A DNA stretch of 32,000 nt, from contig NZ_AFEJ02000004.1 of assembly GCF_000238775.2 (NCBI RefSeq), forward strand, positions 120,101 to 152,100, in the 5' to 3' direction. Position 1 is the stretch's first letter, and each line of letters opens with the position of its first letter. Positions 18,525 through 26,173 of the stretch are shown here, one piece after another. The position numbers and the translations under genes are program-made. Below the pieces are notes generated by a model, which did not search any database, was not told the origin of the DNA, and saw nothing but the letters and a program-made list of their open reading frames with translations. The DNA comes from Acaryochloris sp. CCMEE 5410. GTDB taxonomy: Bacteria > Cyanobacteriota > Cyanobacteriia > Thermosynechococcales > Thermosynechococcaceae.

Positions 18525-18565
18525 GGTAGATTTCTCCTAGATAGAAAATCTCAAAGATTCAACTT

Positions 18566-18605
18566 GAGGCGATTCTTACTAGCTGGAATCGCCTCATTTT
18601 TTATT
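18566..18605 (+). terminator. Canonical intrinsic terminator oriented for the plus strand inside a minus-strand gene array
   Basis: Perfect 10-bp stem GAGGCGATTC / GAATCGCCTC with a 10-nt loop, followed by ATTTTTTATT on the plus strand. No T-run in the minus sense. Confidence 0.6.
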
Positions 18606-19008: not shown

Positions 19009-19173
19009 AATGATTCTCCCAAAATAAAGTGGGAATCAAGACTACTTAAATTGCCCTAATTCTTCATAAATACAGCAGTCATGAAAATGCAGAAATGTAT
19101 AGATAGTAAGGATTGTCTTGGTGAACGTGATAGATTTATAGGCATGAAACAGAAGCATTTTATGCTTTAGTCG

Positions 19174-19205
19174 GGGCAATTTTCCTGACTATGGATTGCC
19201 CTTTT
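19174..19205 (+). terminator. Plus-oriented terminator-like hairpin in AT-rich gap
   Basis: GGGCAAT-N14-ATTGCCC followed by TTTT. Confidence 0.45.
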
Positions 19206-19299
19206 ACTCATTCGGCTAGACTAGTTTGTCAAAACCCACAATATAGAATCTGAGACTGTGTTAAATTTCATTCAGATTGTATGAACAGCAATCATTTGA

Positions 19300-19331
19300 G
19301 GGCGATCTAATATACTCCAGGTCGCCCTTTT
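19300..19331 (+). terminator. Plus-oriented terminator-like hairpin
   Basis: GGGCGATC-N12-GGTCGCCC (one G-T wobble) followed by TTTT. Confidence 0.45.
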
Positions 19332-19436
19332 CCATACCGCTTTGTCATCCTTCACCTCAATTGGGGCATCCTCATAGTTGTGAGTACGGATAACTACTTC
19401 AAAACCATCAACGAAATAGATCTCGACAGCTTCTCG

Positions 19437-19754
19437 TTACTGAAGCTGTCTTTTTTGTCTCAAGCTCCCCTCGCACCAGGCCATCCAAGATTTCGCCAAC
19501 TGGCAATCACTGACTTCATCCGGTAGCTCTGCCCAGAACAACTCGAAGGCTTGCTGAGCCTGCCAGAAATACTCAAAATACCCCTCGCGCACCGACCAGT
19601 TGCACAACAACAAATTGCGGAGAAACAGAGCTTGGTAAGGATGAAGGCGACCGGGGTAAACCGGAAAACCCTCATCCTCACAGAAGCCCTTGATATCTTC
19701 CCGGCAATACTCCGTTAGAGTTTTCAGTGCTTGCCAGTCGATGGTCAGGTTCAT
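19437..19754 (-). CDS. Hypothetical protein
   Basis: 105-aa ORF. Its ATG overlaps the upstream stop (ATGA at 19751-19754). Confidence 0.6.
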   Translation of the reverse strand: MNLTIDWQALKTLTEYCREDIKGFCEDEGFPVYPGRLHPYQALFLRNLLLCNWSVREGYFEYFWQAQQAFELFWAELPDEVSDCQLAKSWMAWCEGSLRQKRQLQ

Positions 19755-22130: not shown

Positions 22131-22163
22131 CCTGAAACAAAGCAGGGGCAGGATGCCCCTTGC
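22131..22163 (-). terminator. Rho-independent terminator after gene 22181..22360
   Basis: Minus strand: GCAAGGGGC-atcct-GCCCCTGC (one bulge) followed by TTTGTTTC. Confidence 0.6.
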
Positions 22164-22180
22164 TTGACCTGGAACTAACT

Positions 22181-22360
22181 CTAGGTATCTTCTGGGTGGG
22201 TATCAGGGACGAAATGACGGGAGTCTCCAGAATCAAAAGGCTGATGCTGGTAGCCATCCTGGGTCGGGACTGAGAGCCATTTCTTAGGAGTAGTCCAAGG
22301 CTGACTTAATTCAGCGTCAGTTCTGGGTTGCCAAGCTTGACTCATTAAATCGTTTAACAT
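22181..22360 (-). CDS. Candidate 59-aa protein, first gene after leader element A
   Basis: Read manually: MLNDLMSQAWQPRTDAELSQPWTTPKKWLSVPTQDGYQHQPFDSGDSRHFVPDTHPEDT. AAGAGG lies upstream. Followed by a minus-strand terminator. Confidence 0.45.
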   Translation of the reverse strand: MLNDLMSQAWQPRTDAELSQPWTTPKKWLSVPTQDGYQHQPFDSGDSRHFVPDTHPEDT

Positions 22361-22384
22361 TGGCTCATACCTCTTAGTAGGTGT

Positions 22385-22458
22385 ACAAGTGAGAGCCGCT
22401 GAAGTTCTGCCAGGAAGGACAGCGGCTCTTTCAATGAAAGTTTTTGAATTTGTCTCTA
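22385..22458 (-). repeat. Leader element copy A (hairpin 22392-22400 / 22421-22429 plus CTTTCAATGAAAG palindrome)
   Basis: ~70-nt sequence shared with 25946-26013. 9-bp stem AGAGCCGCT/AGCGGCTCT with a 20-nt loop. Ends ~30 nt upstream of ATG 22360. Confidence 0.7.
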
Positions 22459-22571
22459 GTTTTTAGCCTTAGTCGGCATCGCCTTACGGTCGCGGCACCA
22501 GCTACAGGTGTTTGCTAGCAGTTGGGGGAAGGTCGCTGTCGCCCGGTCTTTTGTTGTTTATCTATGATTGT

Positions 22572-22600
22572 ATAGTACAAAATTAGGCCAGAGAAGTCAA
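22572..22600 (-). promoter_or_regulatory. Sigma70-type promoter reading leftward: TTGACT-N17-TACTAT
   Basis: The minus strand reads tgcTTGACTtctctggcctaattttgTACTATacaatc. It lies just downstream of the terminator at 22621-22650. Confidence 0.55.
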
Positions 22601-22620
22601 GCATTTTTAGGCGTTTTTAT

Positions 22621-22650
22621 ATAAAAAATCCCGATCATTGACCGGGATTT
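22621..22650 (-). terminator. Rho-independent terminator after gene 22675..22902
   Basis: Minus strand: AAATCCCG-gtcaatgat-CGGGATTT followed by TTTTAT. Confidence 0.75.
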
Positions 22651-22674
22651 AAATAAGATTCTCTGTTGTATCGC

Positions 22675-22902
22675 TTAACTCTGTTTTTCAGCCTTTTTTC
22701 GCTGGTAATACTTTTTCATCCACTCTCGTTTATATGCCTTGCGAGCCTCTGTTTGCTCAAAACGCTCCTGAGCTTCCTTGACTTTCTGTTGGCCTTTCTC
22801 AGTAGATTGATATTTCTGCACTCCTTTACGCAAGACTTCTTTGCCCTTCTCAGTTTGAGCATATTTTTTGCTTGCCCGTTTCTCGGCTTCGCTGCTTGCC
22901 AA
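22675..22902 (-). CDS. Small basic protein with internal ~18-aa repeats (TTG start)
   Basis: 75-aa ORF. Repeats KKYAQTEKGKE / QKYQSTEKGQQ / ERFEQTEARKA. GGAG lies 8 nt before TTG 22902. A canonical terminator follows the stop. Confidence 0.6.
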   Translation of the reverse strand: MASSEAEKRASKKYAQTEKGKEVLRKGVQKYQSTEKGQQKVKEAQERFEQTEARKAYKREWMKKYYQRKKAEKQS

Positions 22903-22999
22903 GGCTCAATCTCCTCTACTCAAGACACTATTCGTACAGTGTAGTGTTTTCCTGATCCAAGCTTCCAGCCCCAGCATATAAGCCAGGGCTGGAGAACTG

Positions 23000-24406
23000 C
23001 TATCGATGTGTTTTGTACTCAACTGAGAACGGGAAACCACCCAACGCTTGTTCTAGTTGCTCTATTACCTCCACAGAAATCGGTGACTGCCAACCAAAGC
23101 TAAACACCAGTGTGTGCGAGTAAAAGATGCAGTTTTCAGTATTAACGCCGTGGTCTAGGAGCCAGGTAAACCCGTCGAATTCCGTTTGTGCTTTCGTTAT
23201 GGCCTTGTCATACTCCTTTTTGATATCAACCCGCTTTTTCTCCGCTTGCTGTTGCTGACGTGCAGCGTTGGCCTTGGTTTGGGCATCGACAATTACGGGA
23301 ACCAAGAACTGTTGCTCATCCTCGGTCAACTTTGCACGTTTGGATCTGCGCTGATCATCAGGCATCAGCCGCAAGAGGTGATAACTATCAGGGGAGAGAT
23401 AAGGTGAGCCGATGCAGTGATCGCAAAAGACTAGCTCGGTATCGTGGGGGTGTTTGTGGCCGCAATAACCACAAGATTTTGGCAAGGTGGGATCTGGCTC
23501 AGGCTTGGACACTGGAGGGGCGACCGGGACAGGCTCTAGAACTGAATCCAGTTCTCGTAAAGCTTTGAGGACTTGATCCACTGCATAGCGACCAGCACTG
23601 TTCAATCTACGCTGAAAAATTCCCTCTCTCGTCCGGTTGAAGGATTGACCTTTGACGATTCTGTAAGCAGGCTTGGTCAGACGCCGATCAAAGTCGAGCT
23701 GAATCCGGTTCACAACATTATTTTCAATGACGGTGACGCCCAGATCATCATGGCGGGTTTCTGCTGATTCTCCTTGCTCTGCTATGCGTTCGAGGTCAGC
23801 CTTTAACTGTTCAATCCGTTGTTTTGTATTGCGGATCGTGGCGTTATTGTTGGTTAAGGAATAATTGGGGTATCCAATTCGGCCACAAAAATCTGGGGTC
23901 AATAATTCTTGCGCTCTAGACTTGCTGATATTAGCCTTCTCCGCTACGGCCTTGACTCGTGCCTCTCCTTCAAGCTTTTTGGTTGAGCGGATGATTTTGT
24001 TAATCCGCTTCATCTCATCTTGGAGTTGTTGCAGCCCTTCAAGTTTGTGTTTCAATTTTGCGATCGCGTCAGGATCGTCCGAAGAAATTGCAGTATTATT
24101 CTGGATGCCCTCAAGCTTATCCTGGTAACGCTGGGCAGTATCAGCGTGTTCCGCAGCTTTGTCATAGTTTTGATTGACGCGCTTGCGGTAAGCCCGATCT
24201 CCCTTCTCAGAATGGTGACCCACGAGGATCGGCTGTCCAAGGGGGATGGCTGAGGCCATCTTTGAGGCAGTCTCATAACGCTGTTGGGACTCTTTCTGGT
24301 GCTTTTCAGCTAGTTCCTCGTAGCGTTCAATCTTCCGCTCTTTCTTGTCTTCAACGTGCTGGCGACGTTGCTCTAGAACGTCTTGAACGACTTCGGGATT
24401 ATTCAT
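23000..24406 (-). CDS. DUF3560 domain protein with C-terminal zinc-ribbon-containing extension
   Basis: N-terminal region with IPLGQPILVGHHSEKGDRAYRKR, characteristic of DUF3560. Later CGYCGHKH...CDHC. Confidence 0.75.
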   Translation of the reverse strand: MNNPEVVQDVLEQRRQHVEDKKERKIERYEELAEKHQKESQQRYETASKMASAIPLGQPILVGHHSEKGDRAYRKRVNQNYDKAAEHADTAQRYQDKLEGIQNNTAISSDDPDAIAKLKHKLEGLQQLQDEMKRINKIIRSTKKLEGEARVKAVAEKANISKSRAQELLTPDFCGRIGYPNYSLTNNNATIRNTKQRIEQLKADLERIAEQGESAETRHDDLGVTVIENNVVNRIQLDFDRRLTKPAYRIVKGQSFNRTREGIFQRRLNSAGRYAVDQVLKALRELDSVLEPVPVAPPVSKPEPDPTLPKSCGYCGHKHPHDTELVFCDHCIGSPYLSPDSYHLLRLMPDDQRRSKRAKLTEDEQQFLVPVIVDAQTKANAARQQQQAEKKRVDIKKEYDKAITKAQTEFDGFTWLLDHGVNTENCIFYSHTLVFSFGWQSPISVEVIEQLEQALGGFPFSVEYKTHR

Positions 24407-24475
24407 GATGGCAATTCCTATGATTGATGGGATGTGGCGAGTGGGCGGTTTGATGGCACCGCTTAGGCCAAAGAA

Positions 24476-25564
24476 TTAGGCAACAGAGGACGTTTGAGAC
24501 TCAAACAGCGGTAACCCTGAAAACTGGGGGATGCTGGTTATGTCCACTCTGACGCCAAGCATCAACCTCGCGGCTTGCTCAAGGATCTGGTCGTCCCAGT
24601 ACAAGAAAGTATTGCTCTCTTCCATGAACTGATAAATGCATTCCATGATCCGGGTTTTCGCAGGGCCAATAGTCTTGGTGTATTGCAGTTGAGCGTGCAG
24701 ATTGCCATCAGAGCTAAGGGATTGCATCAAATGATAAAGCGCCACAGAAGCGAACCCCTCATAAGGCTGAAAGAATTGCTGTTCATCGCTCAGGGACCAA
24801 TCACGCAGTTGCAGAAGCAGGGTAGATACCTTTGTTCCCTCAAAACGAGTGGGATTGTTCTCGACATAGCCGCACTTGCCAAGTAACCTTTGCAAATTCA
24901 TCGCACTGCTATTGTTGCAATTGCAGGCAATCGACTCGGGCACAATCGCCGCAAGGGTGCCATTGTGCTTCAATGCTGCATGAGCCTTGAGAACATGTTG
25001 AACCCAATTGAAGCCCTCAAACGGGGGATTCATCGCAATCAGGTCATAGCGTTGTGTTAAGTTGACGCTTAAAAAATCCTCGCCCACGACATCAAATCCC
25101 TGGCCCTTCAGAATCTCCTGATTGATAGGATCAATCTCGTAGCAATCAATGGTTGCGTTTGGGTATCGTTCCCGTAGCTCTCTTGCGATCGCACCTTTGC
25201 CCGCTTCAGGTTCCAGAATGGTGAATGGAAAGTCTGACGCTTCGGGGAAGTCTGCAATAAGGAGCAAATCATCAATTGCTGCCTGTGGCGTTTCAAACAG
25301 GCTGTAAGGGTTAGTCTTGGGATATCTCCCTTGCTCTAAGAGCAATTGAATCTGGTCAGATGGGTCTTTGAAGCTCTCGTGATAAGAGCCATTCCAGAAA
25401 ATACCCAGACTATGGATCAGGGGCTTGAATGCTGCATAATCCTTTGTGGACATCTGGACTGAAAGATCAACTCGATAGCTATTGCCATTACTGGAAACTT
25501 GAGCAGATTCCAGCGCCTCTCTATGTATAGACTTGAGGCGTTTTGAAGAAAAAATGATGGTCAT
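24476..25564 (-). CDS. N6-adenine-type DNA methyltransferase (NPPF class), apparently orphan
   Basis: SAM motif ILEPEAGKGAIA and catalytic motif IAMNPPF. N-terminal extra domain of ~100 aa. Confidence 0.82.
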   Translation of the reverse strand: MTIIFSSKRLKSIHREALESAQVSSNGNSYRVDLSVQMSTKDYAAFKPLIHSLGIFWNGSYHESFKDPSDQIQLLLEQGRYPKTNPYSLFETPQAAIDDLLLIADFPEASDFPFTILEPEAGKGAIARELRERYPNATIDCYEIDPINQEILKGQGFDVVGEDFLSVNLTQRYDLIAMNPPFEGFNWVQHVLKAHAALKHNGTLAAIVPESIACNCNNSSAMNLQRLLGKCGYVENNPTRFEGTKVSTLLLQLRDWSLSDEQQFFQPYEGFASVALYHLMQSLSSDGNLHAQLQYTKTIGPAKTRIMECIYQFMEESNTFLYWDDQILEQAARLMLGVRVDITSIPQFSGLPLFESQTSSVA

Positions 25565-25626
25565 GATAATTCCCTTCGTGGCGAGTGGGGATGAAAACGG
25601 GAGGGGGCAGAGGTGCCCCGGATGGT

Positions 25627-25920
25627 CTAGAACGGTTCGTCTGCTTCATCCTCAGCTCGGAGCTGGCGAGATGTCGGCACCGTTTGCCAGTCGGCAAGTC
25701 TGGAGCTAGGACCGTACTCGGACAGCACCCAGGTTCTGAGCCGATCACCTAATGAACCGACTCTGTTCTTGACAATGAAGTAGATTTCCTCAAGTTCACC
25801 ACCGTCACGGACTCCAGGCCAATGCTCGACCTGACCGCAGACTAGGGTCACTTCAGGATAGAGAGGATCGGTAATCTGTTCGTCAACCTGTTTCTCAAGT
25901 TGCGTTAATGTAGTAATCAT
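25627..25920 (-). CDS. Hypothetical protein, first gene after leader element B
   Basis: 97-aa ORF. AAGGAAATACAG precedes ATG 25920. Confidence 0.6.
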   Translation of the reverse strand: MITTLTQLEKQVDEQITDPLYPEVTLVCGQVEHWPGVRDGGELEEIYFIVKNRVGSLGDRLRTWVLSEYGPSSRLADWQTVPTSRQLRAEDEADEPF

Positions 25921-25945
25921 CTGTATTTCCTTTGGTAAATGGTTT

Positions 25946-26013
25946 ACAGAGAGAGCCGCTGAAGATCTGCCAGGAAAAGCAGCGGCTCTTTTTCAATGAA
26001 AGTTTTGTCTCTA
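25946..26013 (-). repeat. Leader element copy B (hairpin 25952-25960 / 25981-25989 plus TTTCAATGAAA palindrome)
   Basis: Same stem sequence and near-identical loop (gaagatctgccaggaaaagc vs gaagttctgccaggaaggac). Ends ~30 nt upstream of ATG 25920. Confidence 0.7.
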
Positions 26014-26143
26014 TCCTTTGATTGCTTCTTCTAGCTTCTTTACCCAGTCTGGAAGACCTTGTGCTTTGCCTAGAAGATCATGTCTCTGGACTATTTCGGT
26101 GGAAGCCTTTCGGGGCGCTTGCCTTTCCTTTTAGTATGCTATT

Positions 26144-26173
26144 ATTGTACACAAGCTATGCACAGCTTGTCAA
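26144..26173 (-). promoter_or_regulatory. Near-consensus sigma70-type promoter reading leftward: TTGACA-N18-TACAAT
   Basis: The minus strand reads aaatgtgTTGACAagctgtgcatagcttgtgTACAATaat. It would drive the operon starting at 25920 through a ~210-nt leader. Confidence 0.6.
26151..26170. promoter_or_regulatory. Candidate operator palindrome ACAAGCT-N6-AGCTTGT inside the leftward promoter
   Basis: Perfect 7-bp arms at 26151-26157 and 26164-26170, overlapping the promoter spacer and -35. Located 65 nt upstream of the RHH gene. Confidence 0.45.

Follow-up and report, generated by a model that had tools for sequence, protein, structure and literature searches.

Leader hairpins of two leftward operons

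The DNA analyzed here is a stretch of 32,000 nucleotides (nt) of contig C4 of Acaryochloris sp. CCMEE 5410 (G000:C4:120101-152100), hereafter the window, and the element in question is a hairpin that recurs in the 5′ leaders of two operons, A and B, transcribed leftward from the minus strand. C4 is an Acaryochloris plasmid contig of 175.7 kb in a genome of 8.09 Mb, and the plasmid-database matches of the window were all Acaryochloris plasmids, mostly typed as conjugative (MOBF/MPF_T). Operon A consists of a gene for a protein of 59 amino acids (aa), many small genes, and then DUF4326, phosphoadenosine phosphosulfate (PAPS)-reductase-like, C5 methylase, and DUF5131 genes; the genes of operon B are given in Table 1. 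An earlier interpretation made from the letters alone (the sequence-only reading) had described two leftward operons, near-identical hairpin segments ahead of their first genes, and sigma70-like promoters farther upstream. The operon boundaries agree with this description, as a minus-strand terminator (22626-22650) closes the upstream operon just before promoter A, and both promoters, TTGACT-N17-TACTAT and TTGACA-N18-TACAAT, were recovered by a scan at 143 and 155 nt upstream of the hairpins.

Both repeat segments were read directly in the window sequence at the places where they had been reported. The hairpin itself is there in each, with a stem of 10 bp and a loop of 18 nt instead of the 9 bp and 20 nt given before, and its 38-nt pattern occurs exactly twice in the window, compared with no occurrence in 100 shuffles. 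The description as near-identical holds for a common core of ~56 nt (89% identity) and not for the remaining 130-190 nt of the leaders, which are unrelated. The flanking sequences CTGCCAGGAA, TTTCAATGAAA, and GTCTCTA were found in both copies; the palindrome TTTCAATGAAA is complete in the two window copies, but other copies keep only the half AACTTTCATT, and it was rejected as an operator since one half alone is conserved. The distance of about 30 nt to the first start codon proved to be exactly 31 nt in both operons (ATGs at 22360 and 25920). Along the mRNA strand, an A-rich run is followed by the hairpin, a spacer of ~30 nt with the ribosome-binding site, and the ATG, a unit that we refer to as the cassette. 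The mRNA sense lacks a U-tract, as had been noticed; on the + side, the stem of copy B is directly followed by TTTTT and that of copy A by TTTCAATG.

Table 1 Features of the two leaders and their operons, with the sister-class copy of the same genome (window positions unless stated otherwise)
Feature	Position	Strand	Remarks
Hairpin copy A	22392-22429		Stem AGAGCCGCTG/CAGCGGCTCT, 10 bp, 100% complementary; 18-nt loop
Hairpin copy B	25952-25989		Stem as copy A; loop differs from copy A at 4/18 positions
T-rich tail of copy A	22430-22446	+	TTCAATGAAAGTTTTTG; TransTerm-style tail score -3.08
T-rich tail of copy B	25990-26006	+	TTTTCAATGAAAGTTTT; tail score -4.19, as good as true terminator 22626-22650 (-4.03)
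Spacer, operon A	22361-22391	-	31 nt; Shine-Dalgarno AAGAGG; small second stem-loop on either strand
Spacer, operon B	25921-25951	-	31 nt; CTGTA...TACAG stem around AAAGGAAA
Predicted antisense RNA A	22365-22446	+	~80 nt; two stem-loops and U-run; -29.3 kcal/mol, z -3.5; putative ends
Predicted antisense RNA B	25917-25996	+	~80 nt; two stem-loops and U-run; -29.4 kcal/mol, z -3.6; putative ends
Weaker candidate antisense -10, copy A	22355-22360	+	TAACAT; overlaps start codon of 59-aa gene
Candidate antisense -10, copy B	25906-25911	+	TAATGT; codons 4-5 of 97-aa gene, 40 nt before hairpin; no good -35
Second hairpin, copy A	22527-22552	+	4/9 pairs G·T; then TTTTGTTGTT; adjoins sense start site of A
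Second hairpin, copy B	26112-26125	+	Then TCCTTTTAGT; adjoins sense start site
Sense promoter, operon A	22572-22600	-	TTGACT-N17-TACTAT; promoter scan
Sense promoter, operon B	26144-26173	-	TTGACA-N18-TACAAT; promoter scan
Canonical intrinsic terminator	22626-22650	-	End of operon B, just before promoter A
First gene, operon A	22181-22360	-	59 aa; homologues behind element on C3, C21, plasmid pREB6
First gene, operon B	25627-25920	-	97 aa
Methyltransferase, operon B	24476-25564		362 aa; after 97-aa gene
DUF3560 protein, operon B	23000-24406		Then 75-aa open reading frame
Sister-class copy	G000:C21:192160-192245		Outside window; loci L063-L066, L069-L079

Distribution of the cassette and strand asymmetry of a sister class

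The element belongs to a plasmid-only cassette of Acaryochloris at the heads of arrays of the establishment type. A genome-wide search with the exact stem returned five copies: C4 and C3 carry two each and C21 one, all three being plasmid-sized contigs, and there is none on the chromosomal contigs C22 and C23. Across the genus, ~20 distinct copies of this class were read, besides further covariance-model matches, and in every one of them 29-34 nt separate the element from the ATG of the first gene; these first genes represent at least four families. The concern, raised in the sequence-only reading, that the repeat could be a generic dispersed cyanobacterial one unrelated to operon starts is thus not borne out. 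The covariance model R1 found 1-7 copies in five of nine Acaryochloris genomes (this genome counted; completeness is 82-87% in the four that gave no match), and its sole match in 150 other cyanobacterial genomes was an ordinary acetyltransferase-gene terminator in reverse orientation. A protein search for the first gene in the collection of species-representative genomes yielded Acaryochloris alone.

The genes behind the element look like the establishment or leading-region genes of conjugative plasmids (cf. PMC11541004); for instance, the arrays that follow it in A. marina MBIC11017 contain DUF3768, ssb, DUF4326, cytosine methylase, and DUF5131 genes. In this strain, 12 cassettes are distributed over pREB1-6 and an additional plasmid contig. 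One cell of the strain studied here holds four syntenic but mosaic small-gene arrays on three plasmids (C3 at 49-63 kb and 186.5-201.5 kb, C4, and C21 at 198-233.5 kb), each headed by a cassette.

Within the cassette, no copy read departs from the common sequence at any of the 20 stem positions, and the loop varies in both sequence and length (18-21 nt), with only an inner TTC...GA(A/G) pair retained. The further copies that the sequence-only reading had asked about are thus present across the genus, and covariation is absent from their invariant stems; it was met in a related class described below. In the copies L015 and L018, the sequence enclosed by the invariant arms resembles the reverse complement of the loops of other copies, as if flipped, which leaves sense-antisense complementarity intact. 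Promoters, upstream leader modules, and divergent regulators (ribbon-helix-helix (RHH), helix-turn-helix, antitoxin-like) differ among copies and the cassette stays constant, which argues for a portable module acting after transcription initiation. The variation of the arm spacing between 18 and 21 nt makes a rigid duplex operator unlikely and a hairpin likely.

Because its stem never varies, this class cannot show which strand carries the functional structure. A gene on C21 whose product is 49% identical to the 97-aa protein is preceded, at the same distance, by a different hairpin, and this sister class comprises 11 mutually related copies on Acaryochloris plasmids, including pREB2 and pREB5, with the hairpin 28-31 nt from the ATG. 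Its layout consists of a promoter directly upstream, ACAAACAAA, the hairpin, TAGTTAAAACCC, a Shine-Dalgarno sequence, TTAACT, and the ATG. Here the stems do vary (GGCACCGCG...CGCGATGCC and relatives; e.g., CGCG/CGCG vs. CCGG/CCGG). Read on the antisense strand, the consensus structure of the 11 copies gives 134 Watson-Crick pairs, 30 G·U pairs, and one mismatch, a G·U count that is inflated at the stem base by the prediction of the structure in antisense orientation, while the identical pairs read on the mRNA strand give 134 Watson-Crick pairs, no G·U pair, and 31 mismatches. Eight internal stem cells still show the asymmetry in favor of the antisense strand, and none shows the reverse. Stem pairs usually change by passing through a wobble pair, and one internal position is found as C-G, U·G, and U-A on the antisense strand, where the mRNA strand would have to pass via C·A. 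The sister-class hairpin also folds better in antisense (-16.8 vs. -11.8 kcal/mol), being more stable in this sense in 10 of the 11 copies, and it is followed on that side by UUUGUUUG, with a tail score of -4.44 as compared with -4.03 for the true terminator of the window.

With a model of the sister class (R2), a cassette of the same layout was found in another cyanobacterial genus (G066:C66:1749-1832, locus L081), with a divergent RHH gene, a promoter, a Shine-Dalgarno stem-loop, and a first gene of 90 aa. Its stem is HIP1 GCGATCGC, followed on the antisense side by UUUUGUUG. This cassette type is therefore not confined to Acaryochloris. The cassette lies upstream of a gene encoding a P-loop motif (GAGTTGSGKS).

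A predicted antisense RNA and its competitors

The terminator quality of the antisense side extends to the class present in the window, whose antisense tails have a mean score of -3.08, with 13 of 18 copies passing the usual cut-off of -2.5; sense-side tails score about -2.0, the random level. On the same strand, all 27 distinct N-termini of both classes contain a TAnnnT box within codons 1-6, 29-43 nt before the hairpin. Positions 1, 2, and 6 of the box are constant and positions 3-5 vary (TAATGT, TAAAGT, TAGAGT, TACAGT, TAGAAT, TAAATT, and others). In 25 of the 27, the first T of the box falls on the third position of a Leu or Val codon (TTA, CTA, or GTA), and NTA codons make up only 15% of the Leu/Val codons of the array. 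The sister class adds a -35 element (TTAACG, TTAACA, or GTGACG) at a spacing of 17 nt from the box. As a promoter of an antisense RNA, the box is suggestive only. The first genes, otherwise unrelated, have a common N-terminal x-T-(T/D)-x-L-T-(Q/E) motif (window 25903-25920 and 22343-22360), so the conserved nucleic-acid module reaches ~20 nt into the coding region. A more distant antisense promoter (TTGACC-N16-TATCTT, 22164-22191) was dropped, as homologues have TGTCTT or TGTCCT in place of its -10 box.

In sister-class and B-type copies, the interval from the candidate -10 box to the hairpin contains both the Shine-Dalgarno sequence and the ATG. RNAs predicted to start near the box and to end in the T-run would contain two stem-loops, the first of them holding an anti-Shine-Dalgarno sequence; their sense versions fold at -24.5 (B) and -23.8 kcal/mol (A), to be compared with the antisense values in Table 1. 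The predicted RNA of copy A would cover the Shine-Dalgarno sequence only. From the arrangement of these signals we infer an antisense RNA, together with its start, end, and effect. FinP, a plasmid cis-antisense RNA of ~80 nt directed against the traJ leader of F-like conjugative plasmids, is the closest model, and the interpretation we favor, to which we give an even chance of being correct, is that the hairpins of the window are the 3′ stem-loops or terminators of FinP-like cis-antisense RNAs of ~75-85 nt that cover the ribosome site. The sequence-only reading had listed the terminator of an antisense RNA as the last of three options, and it is this one that the wobble asymmetry, the antisense U-tract, and the antisense -10-like box favor.

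The functional strand would then be the + strand, opposite to the mRNA. The RNA would start from the -10-like box within the first codons of the first gene, run back across the start codon and the Shine-Dalgarno sequence, forming its small first stem-loop, and end at the hairpin with its T-run; molecules that read through would end at the second + strand hairpins (22527-22552 and 26112-26125). Pairing with the leader would block translation of the first gene or trigger decay, and the operon would be damped. The mirror hairpin in the mRNA leader may offer a complementary loop for a first "kissing" contact, and variable loops on stems that stay alike could give each copy its own specificity. In a newly entered plasmid, the arrays might be expressed in a burst before the antisense RNA accumulates and be silenced afterwards, as would fit establishment genes.

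Several observations weigh against this interpretation. Antisense tails are poor in 5 of 18 copies of the class in question (e.g., CGTCAATG), and this class lacks a convincing -35 box, copy A having only the weak TAACAT over its start codon. The -10-like box may owe part of its conservation to the common N-terminal T-L motif, and the first codons of genes are often A/T-rich. Besides the inflated wobble count, the asymmetry test is an indirect one for the hairpins of the window, to which it would extend by way of the sister class and the common architecture. The gain of the antisense over the sense fold in the 30-nt spacer is mostly base composition (-2.0 native vs. -1.4 shuffled) and was for this reason not counted as strand evidence. 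A plain terminator needs structure, not sequence, which leaves the invariant stem unexplained; the invariance may reflect a double constraint on both strands, or a protein reading the stem. Finally, the antisense RNA gives no account of the conserved AAAAACTTTCATT run or of the conserved 110-nt leader modules upstream of the hairpin (described below).

Four other explanations compete with the antisense RNA. The structure could act in the mRNA leader itself, as the target of a dedicated RNA-binding regulator of the plasmid (in the manner of a translational operator or of a nut/put-like loading site) or as a 5′ stabilizer formed after cleavage in the upstream A/U-rich run, which takes in the remaining two options of the sequence-only reading. 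An invariant stem with a variable loop suggests sequence-specific recognition, the distance to the ATG is fixed, the arrays hold internal terminator-like hairpins that an antiterminator could override, and the sister-class hairpin starts ~10-20 nt after the predicted start site, like 5′ stabilizers. On the mRNA strand, however, the sister-class stems contain 31 mismatches, C·A among them, without a single G·U, and are weaker by ~5 kcal/mol; the first genes differ between copies, and no partner protein came to light. The plasmids contain no NusG paralogue (a NusG domain is encoded only once, on chromosomal contig C22; the search for N/Q-like proteins was not exhaustive), and antitermination of the RfaH/ops or nut/put type was rejected for want of a dedicated one; FinO/ProQ (PF04352) is without a match in the genome. 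A processing or stability element leaves the strand asymmetry unaccounted for, and the sense hairpin in general leaves the T-run and the antisense TAnnnT box so; we consider it rather unlikely that the leader hairpin works in this way. A pure insulator, i.e., a + strand terminator that stops stray antisense transcription from entering the promoter or the divergent regulator and belongs to no dedicated antisense RNA, would draw on the same terminator evidence as the antisense RNA. Further hairpins facing the + strand, within the array (18565-18596 and 19425-19450) and at the sense start sites (22527-22552 and 26112-26125), and the missing good antisense -35 would suit it as well. Yet an insulator has no need for a fixed spacing of 29-34 nt to the ATG, for a TAnnnT conserved at a synonymous site, or for a second stem-loop with an anti-Shine-Dalgarno sequence, and we judge it unlikely.

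The two explanations that place the function in DNA are less probable still. A hairpin of the single-stranded template strand, serving at plasmid entry as a priming signal or as part of a single-strand promoter like those of F-like leading regions, would suit arrays whose genes resemble those of leading or establishment regions on conjugative MOBF/MPF_T plasmids. It would also accommodate the strand asymmetry, since hairpins of DNA tolerate G·T pairs, and the variation of the loop from 18 to 21 nt, which a rigid duplex site would not tolerate. Against it, the leaders lack a long promoter-mimicking fold (z about -1), and the -35/-10 boxes have no complementary partner. An Frpo-like single-strand promoter was rejected accordingly, the leader folding as single-stranded DNA with a z of -1.2 and its promoter boxes being without an inverted-repeat partner. 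Moreover, the relaxase gene of C4, which begins at position 160962 of that contig on the + strand, is oriented divergently to copy B at a distance of ~15 kb (the geometry on C3 is alike), so that with an oriT upstream of the relaxase the transferred strand would be the coding and not the template one. As the U-tract and the antisense -10-like box are left over too, such a function appears very unlikely. The related idea of an oriT made of the hairpin and a conserved CTGTAAACC nick site was discarded, as C2 carries a relaxase without the element and C21 the element without a relaxase. Operators of KorA/KorB and ArdK recur at several promoters of IncP and IncW plasmids, and the cassette could likewise be the double-stranded operator of a plasmid-wide repressor, given its invariant symmetric 10-bp arms with the inner TTC...GAA pair and its several copies per plasmid at operon heads. 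But arm spacings of 18, 19, 20, or 21 nt would rotate the half-sites relative to each other, the window sites lie 143-155 nt downstream of the promoter -10 box, the sister-class arms covary instead of keeping their sequence, and the divergent regulators differ between copies; an operator of the KorB/ArdK type was rejected on the unfixed spacing and the downstream position, and a duplex operator of any kind is the explanation we hold to be least probable.

Relation to known systems and further features of the arrays

Rfam gave no match in the window at the gathering score, and a sensitive scan of the two leaders gave only chance-level ones (E-value 0.14 or worse); a search for tRNA and tmRNA genes found none, and a literature search for Acaryochloris start-site or antisense maps returned nothing usable. 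The likeness to FinP/traJ is one of architecture. The predicted cassette RNA, too, would have ~80 nt and two stem-loops and be complementary to the leader and ribosome site of a first regulatory gene; its 3′ stem-loop, like that of FinP, would double as the terminator, and loop differences with the stems kept, which give FinP alleles their specificity, would do the same for its copies. The two have no sequence relation, however, and the Acaryochloris cassette has no FinO/ProQ partner. A partner of this type is required by the F-like system only, not by antisense control in general. The cassette would furthermore be directed not at a transfer activator but at the small gene that opens an array rich in methylase, ssb, and DUF genes, and it occurs in several copies per plasmid, in the class of the window 130-190 nt inside a longer leader. 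CopA/CopT of R1, Sok/hok, and RNA-OUT/RNA-IN of IS10 are further cis-antisense controls of plasmids, and they share with the proposed RNA a short structured antisense partner over the translation-initiation region, with loop contact as the proposed first step; they control the replication, killing, or transposition of a single gene, whereas the cassette is a portable module before different first genes. Intrinsic terminators resemble its + strand, where a T-run comes after a GC-rich stem and the sister class scores like a true terminator, but the loop of 18-21 nt exceeds the usual length, 5 of 18 copies have a weak proximal U-tract, the stem sequence is invariant, and the spacing to a start codon of the opposite strand is always fixed. 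Frpo/ssi single-strand promoters sit at the heads of anti-restriction/ssb-type arrays of conjugative plasmids (PMC11541004). The Acaryochloris cassette occupies such a position too, and differs in lacking a long hairpin that rebuilds the -35/-10 boxes and in having ordinary double-strand promoters upstream.

Should the antisense RNA exist, the establishment or anti-restriction arrays of cyanobacterial conjugative plasmids would have in it their first described control at the post-transcriptional level, a counterpart of FinP/traJ that acts on entry genes instead of transfer genes. It would then also provide a small, portable regulatory element (~110 nt) for the genetics of cyanobacteria, whose natural hairpins, alike in stem and different in loop, could be tried for orthogonality. 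As cis-antisense control on plasmids is already well known, the gain would be a new family and a new class of targets, not a new principle. A bolder version is possible, although we would expect it to fail sooner than to hold: the cassette as a portable multi-copy antisense switch, with an invariant stem, a fast-changing and flippable loop, an anti-Shine-Dalgarno stem-loop, and a -10 box in the first codons, that can be placed before any first gene. The arrays would fire once on entry and then be silenced, the loop would be the address that prevents cross-talk among 5-12 copies per cell, and the stem would be read by a protein.

The leaders upstream of the hairpin (22460-22570 and 26010-26140) are composed of conserved modules, of which there are at least three types. 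In leader A, the module is ~110 nt long, is 88-95% identical on C3, on C21, and in other strains, and is better conserved than the genes behind it. The second + strand hairpins of the two leaders occupy the same position relative to the sense start site as the sister-class hairpin does; that at 22527-22552 may act as a back-stop terminator or close a longer form of the antisense RNA.

Inside the minus-strand array, terminator-like hairpins with a T-run on the + strand alone were seen at 18565-18596, 19425-19450, ~19300-19331, and ~19174-19205. The one at 18565-18596 lies 40 nt before an ATG (18524), in a layout like that of the leader cassette. The stretch 19010-19440 (430 nt) is without a clear minus-strand open reading frame and may hold small RNAs of the + strand. 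Directly after the 59-aa gene, a conserved GC-rich hairpin, AGGGGCATCCTGCCCCT, is found on the minus strand at 22144-22160, ahead of GCTTTGTTTC, and may act as a sense-strand attenuator that separates this gene from the remainder of operon A.

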